NCBI GenBank assembly: GCA_016218065.1 | Contig: JACRFA010000033.1 | Location: 1-60,947 of the forward strand | DNA from: Ignavibacteriota bacterium | GTDB lineage: Bacteria; Bacteroidota; Ignavibacteria; UBA10030; UBA6906 | Reading direction: 5' to 3' | DNA: 60,947 bases | Part shown: piece by piece, positions 11,391 to 46,546 of the stretch | How the letters are laid out: each line of letters begins with the position of its first letter | How positions within the stretch are numbered: position 1 is the stretch's first letter | Program-made: the position numbers and the translations under genes | The notes under the pieces: model-generated | The model's database searches: none | Seen by the model: only the letters and a program-made list of their open reading frames with translations | Told to the model about the DNA's origin: nothing

Positions 11391-11598
11391 GAGATTCCCG
11401 AAAACGCCAGAAAATTATCTCGGCATCTTTTGATTGTCATTCTGAACGGAGTCCAGACTGCTTCCCAAGTCGGGACGGAGTGAATGCCGCTTCGCAGGCA
11501 TCCCCTTGGGAGAATCCAGTACGGGTTTCTGGATTCTTCGCCTCTGTAAGGCGAGGCTCAGAAAGACAGTTCATAAGCAGTTTCGATGGGGAATCTCC
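11391..11598. repeat. composite palindromic intergenic element (compact copy of the family also seen at 28921, 38456, 50437 and 56493)
   Basis: Terminal inverted repeats gagattccc(g) / (g)gggaatctc. Internal modules ttgattgtcattctgaac, actgcttcccaagtcgggacggagtgaa and cgcctct..gcgaggct are shared with 38456-38906. Confidence 0.75.
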
Positions 11599-36042: not shown

Positions 36043-37521
36043 ATGAAAATTCTTTTGTTACTGACTGCTGTGCTTGTCTGCTTCACGACTTCATCGGCTC
36101 GCATCCTTCACGTTCCGGCAAACTACACGACGATTCAATCGGCGATTAACGCGTCGGTAAACGGCGATACGGTTTTGGTTGCGCCCGGAACGTATCAGGA
36201 GAACGTGATCTTTCGCGGAAAGAGGATTGTGCTAACGAGCCGGTTCTATCTTGATGCGAATCCGTCATCGATCATCCAAAGCACGATCATCGACGGAAGC
36301 AATCCTTCACATCCCGACTCAGGAAGTTGTGTTCGCATTGCCAACGGCGAAGACTCGACGACGATTCTTCAGGGCTTCACACTCACCCGCGGATACGGTA
36401 CATTGTGGCAGGATGAAAACGGCGCGGGGCGTTACTGGGAAGGCGGCGGCGTGTTGATTGCATTAAGCTCGCCGACCGTGCGACACAACATTATTCGGAA
36501 CAACGACGTGAACAGAACCGGCGGGCAAAGCACGGGCGGCGGCGGCATCAGGCTTGGCGACGGCTCGCCCTACATTCTGAACAATATCATCATCAATAAT
36601 GCGGGCATGTACGGAGGAGGCATTGTCTCGAACTACGCGTCGCCGACAATCCGCAACAACATTGTCGCGTATAACGTCGTCTCGCCCGCAGTTGCCGGAC
36701 GCCCAACGTATGGCGGCGGTGGAATGTGGGTGAACGGCAGCCGCCCGGGCGCGACGTTTCCGAACAGAATCGAAAACAACACGATCGTCGGCAACTCGGC
36801 AACAGGCTCAGGCGGGTCGGGTGCAGGCGGAAAGGGTGGAGGAATGCTCGCTGCGTTCTCCGCGACAATCAACTCGCGCAATAACATCGTGTGGGGTAAC
36901 ACGCAAACAACGGGCGGGCAATTGAATATCGCGAGCGGAAGCAGCGTGATTGCGACATACAGCGATGTCGAAGGCGGATACGCGGGAAGCGGCAACATCA
37001 ACGTCACTCCGAATTTTGCGCCGACAAGTTTCTACTTGCAGACGGGAAGTCAATGCATCGATGCCGGAGACACAACTGCTGCGTTCAACGATCTTCCTGA
37101 TCTGACGAATCCGGGCGTGGCTCGCTGGCCATCGCTCGGCGGATTGCGGAATGATATCGGTGCGTACGGCGGTCCGGGCGCGGTAGTGATCGCAACAATT
37201 CTCACATCGGCGCCTGCACGAGGAGATGGAATTGCGGCTGAGTTCTCCCTCGAACAGAACTATCCGAATCCGTTTAACCCAAGCACTAGCATCACATACT
37301 ATTTGCCGGAAGTCGGAGGTCGGAAGTCGGAGGTCGGGTATGTCACGCTTAAGGTTTTTGATATGCTCGGTCGTGAAGTCGCAACGTTGGTGAACGAAGT
37401 CGAGGAGCCGGGGACGTACACGGTGCAGTGGAATGCCTCGAGCATCGCGAGCGGCGTGTATCTGTACCAACTCAGCGCAGGAGAATTTGTGCAGACGAGA
37501 AAACTGATGGTCGTTCGATGA
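36043..37521 (+). CDS. right-handed parallel beta-helix repeat protein with a T9SS C-terminal sorting domain
   Basis: Signal peptide, 'VPANYTTIQSAINAS.NGDTVLVAPGTY' (a typical beta-helix cap), repeated N-N-I/G-G-G rungs, and the CTD LEQNYPNPFNPSTSITY...YLYQL. Confidence 0.8.
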   Translation: MKILLLLTAVLVCFTTSSARILHVPANYTTIQSAINASVNGDTVLVAPGTYQENVIFRGKRIVLTSRFYLDANPSSIIQSTIIDGSNPSHPDSGSCVRIANGEDSTTILQGFTLTRGYGTLWQDENGAGRYWEGGGVLIALSSPTVRHNIIRNNDVNRTGGQSTGGGGIRLGDGSPYILNNIIINNAGMYGGGIVSNYASPTIRNNIVAYNVVSPAVAGRPTYGGGGMWVNGSRPGATFPNRIENNTIVGNSATGSGGSGAGGKGGGMLAAFSATINSRNNIVWGNTQTTGGQLNIASGSSVIATYSDVEGGYAGSGNINVTPNFAPTSFYLQTGSQCIDAGDTTAAFNDLPDLTNPGVARWPSLGGLRNDIGAYGGPGAVVIATILTSAPARGDGIAAEFSLEQNYPNPFNPSTSITYYLPEVGGRKSEVGYVTLKVFDMLGREVATLVNEVEEPGTYTVQWNASSIASGVYLYQLSAGEFVQTRKLMVVR

Positions 37522-37562
37522 GAGTCGCAAACCAACTACAATCATCACAAAGGAATTTGACG

Positions 37563-38447
37563 ATGAAGTTCTGGACTTTGATTTCGCTGATGACATTACT
37601 GTGTGCAACACGAACGGTCTTCGGGCAGAACGCGCCGACAAATGCGCTTACAACTTTGGTGGAGACAGAAAAGGCGTTTGCGGCGATGTCTCCCGAGAAG
37701 GGAATGAAGGCAGCGTTTCTCGCGTACCTTGCCGATGATGGAGTTCTCTTCCGTCCCGGGCCGGTGAACGGAAAGGAAGTCTGGCGAAAGCGACCGGACA
37801 GCACGAGCATGCGGCTGGATTGGGAGCCGACATTCGCGGACGTCGCGGCGAGCGGCGAGTTAGGGTACACGACAGGACCATGGACCCTCACGCCCGGACC
37901 TAATCTTGATCAACCGCCGAAGTACGGCTTCTTCGTCTCGGTTTGGAAGAAGCAACGCGATGATCAGTGGAAGTTGGCTGTCGATTTGGGGATTGAGAAT
38001 CCGCACCCCGAAAAAGTTGAGCGAACATTCGCGACAGGGGAACCGACGGCCTCGTCGCGGGGACGCGGCAGCATGAAGACTGAGTTAGCTCGTCTGCTGC
38101 AGGCCGAGCAGAAGCTCGCGCGGTTGGCAAAAGCCGGTTCATCGGCGGCGGTACGTGAACTTGGCGGAGAGAACATTCGCGTCTATCGTGAAGGCGACGT
38201 TCCAAGCGTTGGACGCGATGCATCAATCGCGAAGCTGACTTCGATGAATGAGAAACTGAAATTGCAGGTAGAGAAACGTGTCGTTGCCGCGTCTCGCGAT
38301 CTCGGATATGCATACGGAAAGTATGACGATCTCGCGAGGCAATCGACCGAAGCCTTTGCAGGATACTTCGTGCACATCTGGAAGAAGGACTCTGCAGGAA
38401 ACTGGAAACTCGTGCTTGACATACTGAATCCGCCGCCGACAAAATAG
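37563..38447 (+). CDS. secreted protein with two NTF2-like (DUF4440/SnoaL-like) repeats
   Basis: Signal peptide MKFWTLISLMTLLCATRTVFG. Both halves end in a W-K-K-x(3-6)-W-K-L pattern (VWKKQRDDQWKLAVD / IWKKDSAGNWKLVLD) typical of DUF4440. Confidence 0.55.
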   Translation: MKFWTLISLMTLLCATRTVFGQNAPTNALTTLVETEKAFAAMSPEKGMKAAFLAYLADDGVLFRPGPVNGKEVWRKRPDSTSMRLDWEPTFADVAASGELGYTTGPWTLTPGPNLDQPPKYGFFVSVWKKQRDDQWKLAVDLGIENPHPEKVERTFATGEPTASSRGRGSMKTELARLLQAEQKLARLAKAGSSAAVRELGGENIRVYREGDVPSVGRDASIAKLTSMNEKLKLQVEKRVVAASRDLGYAYGKYDDLARQSTEAFAGYFVHIWKKDSAGNWKLVLDILNPPPTK

Positions 38448-38455
38448 CGCGTGTT

Positions 38456-38906
38456 TTTGATTGTCATTCTGAACGCCTGCCCGCCTCATGCTTCATGATG
38501 GCAGGCGGGGAGTCCCAACTGCTTCCCAAGTTGGGACGGAGTGAAGAATCTAGAACAGGTTACTGGATTCTCCCGAAGGGATGCCCGCCTGCCTCGCTGT
38601 CCAAACAAGGCGGGCAGGCCTTCGGCATTCGCCTCTGGGAAGCGAGGCTGCTAATGACGTACATGAACTTGTCATTATGAAGCTCGTTCTTCAGAGCTGA
38701 AGAATCCAGAACCCTAGTGGTGCTCTGATCTGGTCGAAGACTCGTCGAGATTCTTCACTTCGTCCCGATTTGAAATGCAATCGGGACTCGTTCAGAATGA
38801 CAAATGGGAGCGCACGTCATTGCCTCAAATAGCCACGCTTGCTTTCGGCGTGGTCATTGAACTCAGAATGACAATGGTGGGGCGATTTCCGATGGGGAAT
38901 CTCTAC
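38456..38906. repeat. expanded copy of the composite palindromic element carrying nested insertions
   Basis: It shares modules with 11391-11598 but contains extra segments at 38475-38508 and 38571-38627 and a 3' extension. It ends cagaatgacaatggtggggcgatttccgatggggaatctctac, as at 29230-29268. Confidence 0.8.
38571..38627. mobile_element. 57-bp GC-rich hairpin insertion element (filled site; the empty site is at about 11547 in the compact copy)
   Basis: ggattct[cccgaagggatgcccgcctgcctcgctgtccaaacaaggcgggcaggccttcggcat]tcgcctct compares with the uninterrupted ggattcttcgcctct at 11541-11555. The termini are inverted (cccgaagg / ccttcgg). Confidence 0.65.
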
Positions 38907-38958
38907 TCAGTGTCTGTTGTTTCCAGACGGCTGAATTGATATATTGTCTCACGAAAAA

Positions 38959-39033
38959 GGACGCTTAGCTCAGCTGGTTCAGAGCGCCTGCCTTACAAGC
39001 AGGAGGTCACTGGTTCGATCCCGGTAGCGTCCA
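38959..39033 (+). tRNA. tRNA-Val (anticodon UAC)
   Basis: Manual cloverleaf: acceptor ggacgct/agcgtcc, D arm gctc/gagc, anticodon arm cctgc-cttacaa-gcagg, variable loop aggtc, T arm actgg-ttcgatc-ccggt, discriminator A. CCA is not encoded. Confidence 0.92.
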
Positions 39034-39150
39034 CTGCCTTATCCCGACACGTGCAACGTCGACCTGCCTGCCGTAGGCAGGGATTCTCATTTCGACATCG
39101 AAGTCAGTGCGCAGATTGTTCGGTGTTTGTTAACTCGGTCGAAATGAAAC

Positions 39151-39345
39151 AAGCAGGAGGTCACTGGTTCTGCCAAAGGCCTGCCCGCCTTGTTTGGACA
39201 GCGAGGCAGGCGGGCATCCCTTCGGGAGATCCCGGTAGCGTCCACAGGTTCCTTATCCCGACAGACAGCGTCGGGATTCTCATTTCGACTTCGAAGGTAG
39301 CGCGCAGATTGTTCGGTGTTTGCTAACTTCGGTCGAAATGGAACT
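39151..39345 (+). repeat. tandem second copy of the tRNA-Val 3' half plus its about 115-bp downstream flank (pseudo-tRNA half)
   Basis: aagcaggaggtcactggttc ... atcccggtagcgtccac ... ccttatcccgaca ... ggattctcatttcgac ... gcgcagattgttcggtgttt ... tcggtcgaaatg repeats the order found at 38997-39150. Confidence 0.85.
39171..39228. mobile_element. second copy (inverted orientation, 57/58 identical) of the GC-rich hairpin element, inserted in the T-loop of the duplicated tRNA-Val half
   Basis: The reverse complement of 39171-39228 matches 38569-38626 with one mismatch. The uninterrupted T-loop ttcgatc is present in the genuine tRNA 150 bp upstream. Confidence 0.7.
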
Positions 39346-39411
39346 TCGGTCGGAATAAATCTAGATGCCCTGAGGGGCATTTTCTTTTGGTCATCAACTT
39401 TTCGGAATTTC

Positions 39412-40023
39412 ATGTCCGGCATCAAAGCAATTATCTTCGATTACGGCAACGTCATAGCGCATGTTGATCACGGCATTTTTCTCCGACGAATCGCCCAACG
39501 TTCCGCCCTCAGTCTCGACGATCTGAAAAATCTCGCGACGGTCCATCAGGATCTTCTTGTCGGATATGAGAGCGGAAAAATGTCGTCAGCGGCATTCGGC
39601 GCGACTATCATCGAGAGATGCAAGCTTACCATGTCGCTCGATGAACTGCGAGATGCCTTTGTCGATATTTTCAATCGCATCGAGCCAACAATCTCGCTTA
39701 TTAGAAATCTCAAATCGCACTACAAAGTCGCATTGCTGTCGAATACCAACGAGTGGCACTTCAGGTCCGAGATCAAGACAGTTGCCGCCTATCCCTATTT
39801 TGACAGCGTGACTGTCTCGTTCCAAGTGGGGGCGATGAAACCTTCTGCCACGATTTATCAGGATGCGTTGAGCAAGCTGGGCGTTACGGGAGGCGAGTCA
39901 CTCTACATCGATGACATCCCGGCGTACGTCGATGCTGCGCGCCAGCTTGGCATGAGCGCCGTTCAATACACTTCGCATGATGCACTCCTCGGCGATCTGC
40001 GCACACACGGAGTTGAGATCTAA
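39412..40023 (+). CDS. HAD-superfamily hydrolase (subfamily IA)
   Basis: Motif I IIFDYGNV, motif II LLSNT, motif III K (GAMKPS) and motif IV IDDI. I chose the ATG at 39412 because the upstream ORF extension lies in repeat DNA. Confidence 0.75.
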   Translation: MSGIKAIIFDYGNVIAHVDHGIFLRRIAQRSALSLDDLKNLATVHQDLLVGYESGKMSSAAFGATIIERCKLTMSLDELRDAFVDIFNRIEPTISLIRNLKSHYKVALLSNTNEWHFRSEIKTVAAYPYFDSVTVSFQVGAMKPSATIYQDALSKLGVTGGESLYIDDIPAYVDAARQLGMSAVQYTSHDALLGDLRTHGVEI

Positions 40024-40107
40024 CCGGTTGCCGGTCTTCAGTGTTGCAGTTGGATCGTTGACTGAATTTTCCTATGTTCAGTGAGAATCACCATTCTTCC
40101 TGTTCCT

Positions 40108-41325
40108 ATGACACTCAATAGTGATATTCTGAAGCAGACCGAAGCGTATGCCACGGCGCTCCTCACGGAAAAGCTTCCGAACTGGGCGGTGTACCACAAT
40201 CTCGTTCACACTCAACAAACCGTCGATGCGGCCCGAGAAATCGGCGAAGCAGCCAACCTCGGCAAATCGGATCTCGAGAGCGTGTTGATAGCGGCCTGGT
40301 TCCACGATGTGGGCTACACCGAAGGAGCCGACAATCATGAGGAGAGGAGCGGCGAGCTGGCTACTCAGTTCTTACGATCGAGAAACCATCCGCAATCGCG
40401 AATCGATCAGATCGTGGGATGCATCCGCGCAACGAAAGTGCCGCAGTCGCCGAAGACTCTGTTGGAGCAAGTCGTCTGCGACGCGGACACCGTGCATCTT
40501 GGGAAGAAGAGGTTCTTCGAACGAAGCTCGCTCTTGCGCATGGAGCTTGAACTGAAATCCGGTGAAGTGGCGAGCGATCTCGAGTGGCTGAAGAAGAATG
40601 TTGCCTTCGCCGCGGGGAACAGCTTTCACACTGAGTACGCCCGCACGCGGTTTGCGGACCGGCGGCAGAAGAATCTGATGTCGCTGCAAGAGCTTCTGCG
40701 CGAGGAACGCGAGCGTTCCGAGCAGGCGGCCGCCAGACACCAGAAGGCGCTACTCAAAGAGGAAAAGGAGAAGAAGCCCGAGCGCGGCATCGAGACGATG
40801 TTTCGTGTTGTGCCGAAGAATCATCTGGACCTCACGGCGCTTGCCGATCACAAATCGAATATCCTCATCGGAACGAACGGTACAATTCTCGCCATCGTGT
40901 TTAGTCTTCTCGTCAGCAAGCTCGATACGCATCCGTATTTGCTCATTCCGACAATCATCATTATTGCCGTGACGATCGTGACCATGGTGTTCGCGATTCT
41001 CGCAACGCGTCCCAACGTGACTGGTGGAACATTCACTCGCGAAGATATCCGGCAGAAGAAAGTAAACCTCCTGTTCTTCGGGAACTTCCACAAATCATCG
41101 CTCGAAGATTTCGATTGGGGCATGCGTGAGATGATGAAGGACAGCGACTACCTCTACGGAAGCATGATCAAAGATCTCTACTTCCTCGGAAAAGTTCTGG
41201 GCGCGAAATTCCACTACTTGCGGATCGCGTACACGGTGTTTATGTGGGGATTGATTGTTGCCGTGATAGCATTCAGTATCGCGATGCTGACTGCGCCTGT
41301 GGCCGTGCCGATGCCGGTGCAATAG
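40108..41325 (+). CDS. HD-domain phosphohydrolase fused to a C-terminal multi-TM module (DUF5706 / Pycsar-effector-like, from memory)
   Basis: HD motifs (HNLVHT, AAWFHDVGY, CDADTVHLG), a charged linker, then a module beginning FRVVPKNH.DLT.LADHKSNILIG with 3 hydrophobic helices. Confidence 0.65.
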   Translation: MTLNSDILKQTEAYATALLTEKLPNWAVYHNLVHTQQTVDAAREIGEAANLGKSDLESVLIAAWFHDVGYTEGADNHEERSGELATQFLRSRNHPQSRIDQIVGCIRATKVPQSPKTLLEQVVCDADTVHLGKKRFFERSSLLRMELELKSGEVASDLEWLKKNVAFAAGNSFHTEYARTRFADRRQKNLMSLQELLREERERSEQAAARHQKALLKEEKEKKPERGIETMFRVVPKNHLDLTALADHKSNILIGTNGTILAIVFSLLVSKLDTHPYLLIPTIIIIAVTIVTMVFAILATRPNVTGGTFTREDIRQKKVNLLFFGNFHKSSLEDFDWGMREMMKDSDYLYGSMIKDLYFLGKVLGAKFHYLRIAYTVFMWGLIVAVIAFSIAMLTAPVAVPMPVQ

Positions 41326-42626: not shown

Positions 42627-43055
42627 TTACGGTGTCGGCGGAAGATTGTATCGCGCCAGAATCACACTGTAAAATTCTTCGAGGTCGGGGAGATTAGTAA
42701 CGAGGATTGACTTCAGAATCTCGGGATCGATGCTTTGATAATCGTGAATGGCTACGTTGCGAAAACCAACCATCGCCGTCATTCTGCGGCTCAGAGACTC
42801 AGGGATGATCCCCGACTGCCGAAGAATAGAGAAATGCTCCTTCATGTTTGCAGGCAGGCCCAATCCTTCCGACGCTATGATATGCGCAGCAAGATCAATC
42901 GTGGACTGGATGGCTCGCTGCAGATTCAGAACAAACACATCTTGAATGTCGAAGTTCTCGAGCCGATCAGGCTCAAGGTTCGTGATGTCGCGAATGCGTC
43001 GCAGACATCGTTGGATGTTTCCAATCTTGGCGAGGACTACGTTCTTATCGGGCAT
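42627..43055 (-). CDS. hepT: HepT-family (DUF86) RNase toxin, type VII toxin-antitoxin system
   Basis: Rx4HxY motif (FRNVAIHDY). 142 aa. It overlaps the upstream nucleotidyltransferase gene by 11 nt. Confidence 0.8.
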   Translation of the reverse strand: MPDKNVVLAKIGNIQRCLRRIRDITNLEPDRLENFDIQDVFVLNLQRAIQSTIDLAAHIIASEGLGLPANMKEHFSILRQSGIIPESLSRRMTAMVGFRNVAIHDYQSIDPEILKSILVTNLPDLEEFYSVILARYNLPPTP

Positions 43056-43464
43056 AGATCCGGCCGTTCAATATGTTGTCCTCGATGGGCTTCCTCATTC
43101 TCTTCAGGTCGTCGTACTCGTTGATGGTTCTGACAAAAAACTCATTAGCCTTTGATTGATTCCGCGTGAACACACGCACTCCTGTCTTCAAGACTTGCAT
43201 TCCGAGAATCGGTGATGCGCCTTCGAGATCGACGATGTCCGCCTCAATACCGAGCGCATCGGTGAACTCCGCTTGAAGCTGCAACAACTCGCCAGCCGAT
43301 GGTCGTCGTTCAAACAGCAAGCCAATATCGATATCGCTTTCCGGCGTGAGACGTTGTGGAACTGCAGAGCCGAAGAGATAGGCCGCGGCGATGTTTCCGT
43401 TTGATTCTGCAAACGTGGAAATGGCGCTCGTTATTGATTCGAGTGTTCGATCCTGCTGCGACAT
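43045..43464 (-). CDS. mntA: MntA-family nucleotidyltransferase antitoxin, type VII toxin-antitoxin system
   Basis: Minimal NTase motif LFGSAV....ESDIDIGLL. 139 aa, immediately upstream of hepT. Confidence 0.8.
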   Translation of the reverse strand: MSQQDRTLESITSAISTFAESNGNIAAAYLFGSAVPQRLTPESDIDIGLLFERRPSAGELLQLQAEFTDALGIEADIVDLEGASPILGMQVLKTGVRVFTRNQSKANEFFVRTINEYDDLKRMRKPIEDNILNGRIYAR

Positions 43465-46337: not shown

Positions 46338-46473
46338 GAGCCGGAGACGGGACTTCCCGATTCCATCGGGACGACGTTCAGCTCACGCGGTCAATCTACA
46401 TTCGAGAGCGGGAGACGGGACTTCCCGATTCCATCGGGACGACGTTCAGCTCACGCGGTCAATCTACATTCGA
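46338..46473 (-). repeat. two tandem 68-bp units, each a degenerate copy of the tRNA-Gly 3' portion with the T-arm replaced by a hairpin
   Basis: The units at 46338-46405 and 46406-46473 differ at one base. Each starts (on the + strand) with gagc(c/g)ggagacgggact, which equals the tRNA 3' end, and contains gacgttcagct, which equals the anticodon-stem/variable region. Confidence 0.88.
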
Positions 46474-46474
46474 G

Positions 46475-46546
<72 letters not shown>

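Follow-up and report, generated by a model that had tools for sequence, protein, structure and literature searches.

The stretch of DNA analysed here (the window: contig JACRFA010000033.1 of the Ignavibacteriota bacterium assembly GCA_016218065.1, 60,947 nt) carries a tRNA-Val gene accompanied by a non-coding cassette that is present 1.5-2 times. The cassette consists, in order, of a 96-nt two-hairpin module, a pseudo-tRNA that corresponds to the 3' part of tRNA-Val (positions 35-76) and has a 57-nt insert in its T-loop, and a second module. All three types of component are repeated elements of the lineage, and the same architecture, in which an intact tRNA gene is accompanied by cognate pseudo-tRNA fragments with hairpins in their loops, is found at about half of the tRNA genes of the genome. 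We are inclined, with slightly better than even confidence, to read the tRNA-Val locus as a nuclease-less member of a group of tRNA-resident GIY-YIG/hairpin cassettes that probably originate from nuclease-induced breaks in the T-loop and repair through microhomology. We favor this reading because the same architecture occurs at other tRNA loci with a gene for a GIY-YIG protein of ~80-95 amino acids beside the tRNA gene, or between the tRNA gene and its pseudo-copy. The nuclease-less cassette in the window is either decayed or non-autonomous.

The tRNA-Val locus has the following parts:

38959-39034, plus strand: intact tRNA-Val(UAC) gene (Aragorn call; Rfam RF00005, 69.4 bits)
39035-39150, plus strand: module copy A, degenerate, which retains part of the small hairpin (ATCCCGACA..GTCGA) and has a substitute hairpin at 39063-39081 in addition to the long hairpin
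39050-39079, plus strand: replacement of 9 nt by 30 nt in the small hairpin of unit A, seen in the comparison of units A and B; it holds the hairpin CCTGCCTGCCGTAGGCAGG directly 5' of GATTCTCATT
39149-39170, plus strand: pseudo-tRNA-Val piece 1 (tRNA positions 37-58), which terminates in GGTTC and is 22/22 identical to the tRNA
39171-39227, plus strand: 57-nt hairpin element in the T-loop of the pseudo-copy, composed of a mini-hairpin, a long hairpin and the mini-hairpin TCCCTTCGGGA
39228-39245, plus strand: pseudo-tRNA-Val piece 2 (tRNA positions 59-76), 18/18 identical to the tRNA
39246-39345, plus strand: module copy B, intact, with the small hairpin ATCCCGACAgacagcGTCGGGAT and the long hairpin TTCTCATTTCGAC...GTCGAAATGGAA
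39346-39361, plus strand: additional partial repeat of the module 3' arm, TCGGTCGGAATAAATC (repeat family D2, 81%)
39363-39390, plus strand: intrinsic terminator (terminator scan), which matches in position and sequence the terminator directly 3' of the tRNA in a relative, G011 (L003 comparison)

The two tandem units 3' of tRNA-Val are unit A at 38997-39150 (154 nt) and unit B at 39151-39345 (195 nt), with a 2-nt ambiguity (AC) at their junction. An earlier note, made from the letters of this stretch alone, had described a tandem repeat of the 3' part of tRNA-Val and its flank with a unit of about 154 nt. That description is borne out by three exact direct repeats: 38995-39016 and 39149-39170 (22/22, tRNA-Val positions 37-58), 39017-39034 and 39228-39245 (18/18, tRNA-Val positions 59-76), and 39037-39049 and 39251-39263 (13/13). 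Further parts of the flank are duplicated with 91% identity across 56 nt (39080-39135 versus 39273-39328) and with 94% identity (39135-39150 versus 39329-39344). An exact 22-mer is expected to recur within 200 nt with a probability of only ~1e-11. The earlier note had also placed the palindromic insert of unit B correctly in the T-loop, but the insert is exactly 57 nt long rather than 58. The hairpin insertion that it had described in unit A is indeed a new hairpin, but not a plain insertion: 30 nt replace 9 nt (gacagcgtc in unit B), for a net gain of 21 nt.

The tandem structure is real as far as short-read data can show, because exact identity between the two units nowhere extends to 31 nt and because an independently assembled Logan contig from the same metagenome sample covers 38981-39500 with 0 differences. 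No assembly joints were seen at the locus in the contigs of this single sample. The genome is a metagenome-assembled genome (MAG) of 319 contigs, and the organism is present, as contigs, in this one sample only, which might favor repeat expansion or a strain chimera in the MAG. However, the same architecture is found in assemblies of other species and, given this and the two observations above, an assembly artefact is extremely unlikely.

The two pieces of pseudo-tRNA-Val are together 40/40 identical to the tRNA, compared to 91% identity for the duplicated flank (~2% by chance). This difference is suggestive of gene conversion, or of selection that maintains homology with the tRNA, which would be expected if the pseudo-tRNA pieces act as homology arms. 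In an Rfam scan of 37500-40500 (E up to 1), the tRNA was the sole match.

The homologous locus in a sister species (G001) comprises a pseudo-5' fragment in which a hairpin replaces the anticodon arm, a GIY-YIG gene, the intact tRNA-Val, the module and a pseudo-3' fragment. The module-to-pseudo-tRNA junction of the window recurs in G001, and it is also present in two contigs assembled from metagenomes that belong to strain-level relatives of G001. These two contigs have the same locus, with nearly identical flanks, but are without ~210 nt of the nuclease open reading frame (ORF); they show directly that nuclease-less versions arise by deletion. Another genome, G006, represents an empty site for the upstream cassette of G001. 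In G008, which has both flanking genes of the window locus, and in G011, which has the same downstream HAD gene and a tRNA-Val 99% identical to that of the window, only a plain terminator lies behind tRNA-Val, and module, pseudo-copy and island are all absent. Because these two loci are empty, the cassette must have been gained or lost within the genus. Presence/absence polymorphism with conserved flanks, which the earlier note had proposed to look for, is thus found among relatives, both for the ORF (G001 versus the two contigs) and for the module and pseudo-fragment (the window versus G008 and G011). In G001, the GIY-YIG ORF upstream of tRNA-Val (contig C13, L013:6436-6652) seems to be frameshifted in a T-run near its start (MYFVYIIF, a stop, then ...SESLNRYYVGHTDDL), and could be a pseudogene or reflect a sequencing error.

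Pseudo-tRNA units and GIY-YIG genes across the genome

Of the 43 tRNA genes, 20 have a piece of at least 12 nt that recurs on the same strand within 600 nt, and none has one that recurs on the opposite strand; the value for random windows is 0.56%. In the recurring design, one to three tandem units lie behind an intact tRNA; these units begin in the anticodon loop or the variable loop, extend to the 3' end of the tRNA, and have a T-arm interrupted by a hairpin. At at least 10 tRNAs (Val-TAC, Val-CAC, Pro-TGG, Pro-CGG, Ala-CGC, Ser-GGA, Ser-GCT, Leu-CAA, Arg-ACG and Thr-CGT), the pseudo-copies are split exactly after GGTTC. The earlier note had raised the possibility that small hairpin elements prefer tRNA-like structures, and this shared position in the T-loop, together with the residence of the 57-nt family in hairpin loops, supports it. 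Units at other tRNAs are as small as 62-82 nt; Ala-CGC, for example, has three units with a period of 82. At Gly-CCC, Gly-TCC, Asp and Asn, part of the arm is replaced by a TCCCGAY..RTCGGGA hairpin. One of these loci is the second instance in the window:

46338-46546, minus strand: tRNA-Gly(CCC), followed by two 68-nt pseudo-3' units

In the tRNA-Gly(CCC) units, the hairpin TCCCGATGGAATCGGGA (TCCCGAT..ATCGGGA) stands in place of CGGGTTCG, which is the 5' strand of the T-stem plus the T-loop.

Mirror-image arrangements, in which 5' fragments with D-loop hairpins lie upstream of other tRNAs, are found on C66 and C118 and in G011 and G020, and 5' pseudo-fragments upstream of tRNAs are as common as 3' ones. 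One array in G020 (C6:480978-481951, L132) contains 5 units of 183 nt; every unit has a promoter and a pseudo-5' tRNA-Pro whose D-loop holds the module. In addition, two tRNA-Arg(CCG) calls lie 207 nt apart at C18:48976-49258, and the second seems to be a duplicate with a 20-nt insertion in the D-loop region.

A small ORF that lies between tRNA-Asp and its pseudo-copy was used as a tblastn query and gave five genomic matches to GIY-YIG genes. Three of the five lie beside or between tRNA-Asp, tRNA-Arg and tRNA-Asn and their pseudo-fragments, and a fourth, located where a contig ends, extends the array of tRNA-Asp (4/5 matches tRNA-linked). GIY-YIG genes are found at paralogous loci on contigs C118 (3698-3967), C131 (3853-4092) and C167 (3981-4226). 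The GIY-YIG proteins of the genome, which are encoded away from the tRNA-Val locus, are 85-97 amino acids long and have a single domain that matches Pfam PF01541 only. Their nearest solved structures are the UPF0213 proteins 1ywl and 1zg2, and NCBIfam has no informative family for them.

GIY-YIG genes are multi-copy in the genomes of the family (60 others), and some form arrays with a period of 347-412 nt. In family members, a tRNA lies within 1.5 kb at 26 of the 30 best GIY-YIG loci, versus ~4% expected. G212 has 6 units of 412 nt at tRNA genes (C11:166324-168632, L166), and G214 has 5-6 units of 356 nt (C12:121959-123835), each with a GIY-YIG gene. In some arrays, as in G212 and G023, every unit contains a pseudo-5' tRNA, with the module in its D-arm, and a nuclease gene. 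TCCCGAY..RTCGGGA hairpins and copies of the module flank the GIY-YIG genes on C131 and C167 and those in G212 and G023.

The two-hairpin module and dispersed hairpin elements

The 115-nt "flank" of tRNA-Val contains the 96-nt module, which is made up of a small hairpin (ATCCCGACA..GTCGGGAT) and a long hairpin with the layout TTCTCATTTCGAC-..GAAGTTAGC-loop-GCTAACTTC..-GTCGAAATGGAA. Copy B has a predicted DNA fold of -24.9 kcal/mol (z = -5.45), and the fold of copy A is weaker (z = -2.1). A covariance model, R1, was built from 11 copies of the module; it was used instead of a regular expression for the long hairpin, which was too loose and gave 51 matches, most of them spurious. R1 matches copy B at 39251-39344 (94.8 bits, E = 1e-21) and copy A at 39056-39150 (75.1 bits). 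The 20-nt loop is identical in copies A and B and distinct from that of all other module copies, indicating local duplication. The type of substitute hairpin present in copy A holds the same place in the modules of G040, and the CCTGCCTGCCGTAGGCAGG region of copy A scores as terminator-like.

When genomes of the order were searched with R1, 137 of 201 contained the module (1-18 copies each, E down to 1e-22), compared to none of ~270 genomes of the phylum outside the order. The alignment of 55 distinct copies was fitted to the model and is thus biased in favor of the structure; in it, 97.4% of cells pair, and compensatory changes occur in 21 of the 26 pairs. None of 500 shuffles reached this level of covariation, and register shifts likewise fell far below it. 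G-U pairs make up ~1% of the paired cells (about 12 of ~1370; alignment A3, 34 loci). Because G-U pairs are nearly absent despite the abundance of compensatory changes, this pattern suggests that the hairpins are constrained as a DNA palindrome on both strands, which is a better fit than constraint as RNA.

In three near-complete genomes, 36 of 62 copies of the module (58%) are within 500 nt of a tRNA gene, versus ~1.3% expected, and 16 of the 62 are within 30 nt. The commonest placement is that in the window, directly 3' of the tRNA and on the same strand (10 of the 16 within 30 nt); antisense modules and modules 5' of the tRNA are also common (22 of the 36 tRNA-near copies). On contig C118, the module is also 3' of tRNA-Arg(TCG) and of tRNA-Arg(ACG), the latter accompanied by a pseudo-3' fragment split after GGTTC. 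Modules are also found within GIY-YIG cassette arrays. We conclude that the 96-nt module is a well-supported new repeat family that is order-wide, has strong covariation and is linked to tRNA genes. The earlier note had noticed neither the mobile-looking character of this flank nor the connection with GIY-YIG genes.

Relative to the tRNA and copy A, the 57-nt insert is an exact insertion; it lies between GGTTC and GATCC of the T-loop, with no target duplication. BLAST detected two further copies in the genome, with 98% and 93% identity. The closer of these is 540 nt upstream in the window:

38571-38627, minus strand: second copy of the 57-nt element, 98% identical (BLAST), in a composite palindromic mosaic upstream of tRNA-Val

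The mosaic spans 38450-38906, is bounded by GTCATTCTGAAC and GTTCAGAATGAC, and is made of nested hairpin modules that are each found on dozens of contigs (BLAST). This upstream element was also compared with a compact element at 11391-11598 as a possible filled/empty pair; the alignment was a mosaic and ambiguous, and was not used as evidence of insertion.

The 57-nt insert is an expanded member of a 22-nt double-mini-hairpin family (e.g., TGCCGAAGGCATCCCTTCGGGA). This family has ~55 sites. Nearly all lie in loops that belong to larger hairpins, and at most of them GAATC comes next, a context that the T-loop site, GGTTC/GAATCC, matches. For the TCCCGAY hairpins (n=111), 19% are within 600 nt of a tRNA, versus 1.1% expected. 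The hairpin elements of this genome are 18- to 45-fold enriched at tRNA genes, where the loops of pseudo-fragments of the cognate tRNA hold them. Two genes for Y1 (IS200/RAYT-like) transposases are present in the genome as well, at C106:1294-1638 and C288:10997-11341. Both sides of the C106 gene carry one set of four hairpins that resemble repetitive extragenic palindromes (REPs), the classical RAYT arrangement, and these hairpins differ in sequence type from those linked to tRNAs. A TCCCGAAGGGA-like mini-hairpin is found near the C288 gene.

Possible origins of the cassette

Two groups of known nucleases provide precedents for how such cassettes might form. SegB, a GIY-YIG enzyme of phages, cuts tRNA genes at RAWTSGAAC (GTTCSAWTY on the other strand, in the T-loop), and this cutting drives tandem amplification of tRNA-containing segments via microhomology (PMC13096335). 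SegB and other free-standing GIY-YIG homing endonucleases are found in the tRNA gene clusters of T-even phages (PMC2330249; PMC13096335). The Ssn (SsnA) proteins are single-domain GIY-YIG nucleases of ~90 amino acids that cut single-stranded DNA next to hairpins, with specificity for structure or sequence, and their genes are flanked by the multi-copy 20-50-nt hairpin repeats NTS/SRM (Chenal et al. 2025, PMC11893778); tRNA is mentioned 0 times in that paper.

From these precedents, we postulate that a GIY-YIG nuclease might introduce nicks or cuts into tRNA genes, whether at the T-loop, close to it, or in loops that are exposed in single-stranded DNA. Repair from a sister copy through a microhomology junction (AC in the window) could result in a tandem partial duplication while one intact tRNA is kept. 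The redundant copy might then tolerate hairpin elements that home to hairpin loops, or might arise together with them. An insert between GGTTC and GATCC would destroy the T-loop motif of the pseudo-copy, and the nuclease genes could be lost later by deletion. We propose this order of events because the break in the pseudo-copies falls exactly at the midpoint of the SegB-type motif and because the positions at which these copies begin are concentrated in the anticodon and variable loops.

The likeness to both systems is partial. As with SegB, a GIY-YIG gene is found among tRNA genes, and the pseudo-copies are broken within the SegB T-loop motif. However, SegB is a two-domain phage enzyme, whereas the proteins described here are bacterial and consist of the catalytic domain only (~80-95 amino acids). 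In contrast to the units amplified by SegB, those described here are partial tRNA copies disrupted by hairpins and joined to palindromic modules, and the tRNA-Val locus has no nuclease gene. Like Ssn, the proteins are single-domain and ~90 amino acids long, and their genes, located elsewhere in the genome, are flanked by multi-copy hairpin repeats; unlike Ssn as described, the elements here have pseudo-tRNA scaffolds, placement in T-loops and D-loops, and tandem cassettes.

Several points weigh against our interpretation of the tRNA-Val locus. SegB has an extra DNA-binding domain and is hence an analogue only. No GIY-YIG gene, remnant or 5' pseudo-fragment was found in 38000-39500 (best tblastn E = 0.14), and a GIY-YIG gene is within 1.5 kb at only 2 of the 30 best module loci. 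The presence of the module and that of GIY-YIG genes are weakly correlated across the family (21/6 versus 8/8, not corrected for phylogeny). The two Y1 transposases could move hairpins. The intact tRNA-Val retains the presumed target motif, so it would have to escape repeated cutting. Lastly, the organism is represented by a single sample, from which evidence on copy number at the population level is not obtainable for this locus.

A bolder possibility, which we entertain tentatively, is that the pseudo-tRNA units and the 96-nt module are non-autonomous parts of an undescribed kind of mobile DNA that has no transposase or integrase. Structure-recognising, catalytic-domain-only GIY-YIG nucleases would break tRNA genes, and repair would copy the cassette in and regenerate an intact tRNA. 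These nucleases would recognise their own hairpins as well as the loops of tRNA genes that are unwound to single strands. If this is true, then tRNA genes would serve as universal safe harbours, and the pseudo-tRNA pieces would be homology arms.

The GIY-YIG nucleases might instead have no causal role, and the locus might reflect an ordinary tandem duplication through slippage during replication of hairpin-rich DNA, after which palindromes resembling REPs or miniature inverted-repeat transposable elements (MITEs) were inserted independently by Y1 transposases or template switching. The junction microhomology of just 2 nt, the 8-9% divergence between units and the lack of a nuclease gene at the tRNA-Val locus are consistent with this, as are the double mini-hairpins, whose ~55 sites are mostly outside tRNA contexts, and the two Y1 genes, one of which is flanked by its own REP-like hairpins. 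The elements here also resemble REPs, bacterial interspersed mosaic elements (BIMEs) and their RAYTs, and MITE-like palindromes such as Correia elements, in that they are short, extragenic, nested and present in tens to hundreds of copies, with Y1 genes in the genome. Unlike REP/BIME-RAYT systems, however, they are strongly enriched at tRNA genes and sit in the loops of cognate pseudo-tRNA fragments. Slippage leaves unexplained why 47% of tRNA genes, versus 0.6% of random windows, have cognate same-strand partial copies, and why GIY-YIG genes are inside such arrays at 26/30 loci, and the hairpins around the C106 Y1 gene are of different sequence types. We therefore consider this explanation rather unlikely. 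Less probable still is a host function, in which the module and pseudo-tRNA would be selected as co-transcribed 3' trailers that act as a terminator, a processing or stability element, or a decoy for tRNA-targeting enzymes. The position most common for the module, directly 3' of the tRNA and on the same strand (10/16 copies within 30 nt), would suit such a role. So would the terminator-like character of the small hairpin plus TTCTCATTT, a feature that the substitute hairpin restores in copy A, and the 100% identity of the pseudo-tRNA segments to the tRNA. A trailer would not be expected to lie antisense or 5' of tRNAs, as 22/36 tRNA-near copies do, and G-U pairs at ~1% of paired cells fit a two-strand DNA hairpin rather than RNA. 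Moreover, G011 and G008, with flanking genes of the window, manage without the cassette, and no Rfam family matches it. The trailer of the tyrT gene in E. coli contains 178-bp tandem repeats that each end in the last 19 nt of tRNA-Tyr. The tRNA-Val locus is similar in having tandem repeats behind a tRNA gene that include the tRNA 3' end, but tyrT is a single locus, and the T-loop hairpin insertion, the dispersed module family and the link to nucleases set the window locus apart.

A direct repeat of the 3' part of a tRNA gene that reaches its 3' end is the classical att footprint, and the earlier note had suggested that the locus is the attL/attR scar of an integrative element that has been excised or has decayed. 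Such a scar, left by a tyrosine integrase in the 3' half of tRNA-Val, would account for the 40/40 repetition of tRNA-Val positions 37-76, interrupted by 57 nt. As in att duplications by tyrosine-integrase islands and in cis-mobilizable elements (CIMEs), their integrase-less derivatives, a tRNA 3' part is repeated and an intact gene is kept. However, the tRNA-Val locus contains no integrase, no ORF with a family match (two ORFs over the repeats have no Pfam match) and no cargo between the repeats, and there is no recombinase near this locus in the window or near the homologous locus of G001. The 115-nt spacer between tRNA-Val and the pseudo-copy, in a locus whose neighbouring genes encode DUF4440 and HAD proteins, is a conserved structured module rather than decayed cargo, and the duplicated flank runs 115 nt past the tRNA. 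The 62-82-nt units at other tRNAs are too small for integrative elements. In contrast to att duplications and CIMEs, the units overall measure 60-200 nt, have hairpins inside the repeat and include arrays of 5' fragments, and 5' pseudo-fragments upstream of tRNAs are equally common. Nor is there an integrative element at this site in relatives: G008 and G011 are empty, and G001 has a GIY-YIG cassette and no integrase. Based on these observations, we regard an integrase scar as very improbable.

Implications and neighbouring genes

If the tRNA-Val locus is a nuclease-less GIY-YIG/hairpin cassette, as we favor, then repeats linked to tRNA genes are not always footprints of integrases, and a recombinase-free process would shape the surroundings of almost half of the tRNA genes in this genome. 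The cassettes pair tiny single-domain GIY-YIG nucleases with candidate DNA substrates, namely the T-loop, the D-loop and lineage-specific hairpins, in a way that is testable. This pairing could extend the single-stranded-DNA nucleases of the Ssn type and the amplification driven by SegB to bacterial chromosomes. Annotation of the 96-nt module and of pseudo-tRNA fragments would also improve the annotation of MAG-rich lineages.

Our literature search found no description of tRNA-resident GIY-YIG/hairpin cassettes or of the 96-nt module, although one may exist beyond the literature searched. New here are the form of the cassette that lies on the 3' side and has no nuclease gene, and the 96-nt module, which is found across the order and for which statistics on covariation and on enrichment near tRNA genes are given. 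Also new are the finding that the nuclease ORF at the homologous tRNA-Val locus is polymorphic through deletion, and the observation that the insertion point coincides with the SegB motif in the literature.

Other genes in the window are of separate interest. An ORF at 40081-41325 (plus strand) encodes an HD domain at its N terminus and a PycTM (Pycsar effector) domain at its C terminus (Pfam, 2.6e-36); among its scanned neighbours, none was evidently a cyclase gene. At 42627-43464 (minus strand), a HepT-like RNase and an MntA-type nucleotidyltransferase form a pair that resembles a toxin-antitoxin system.

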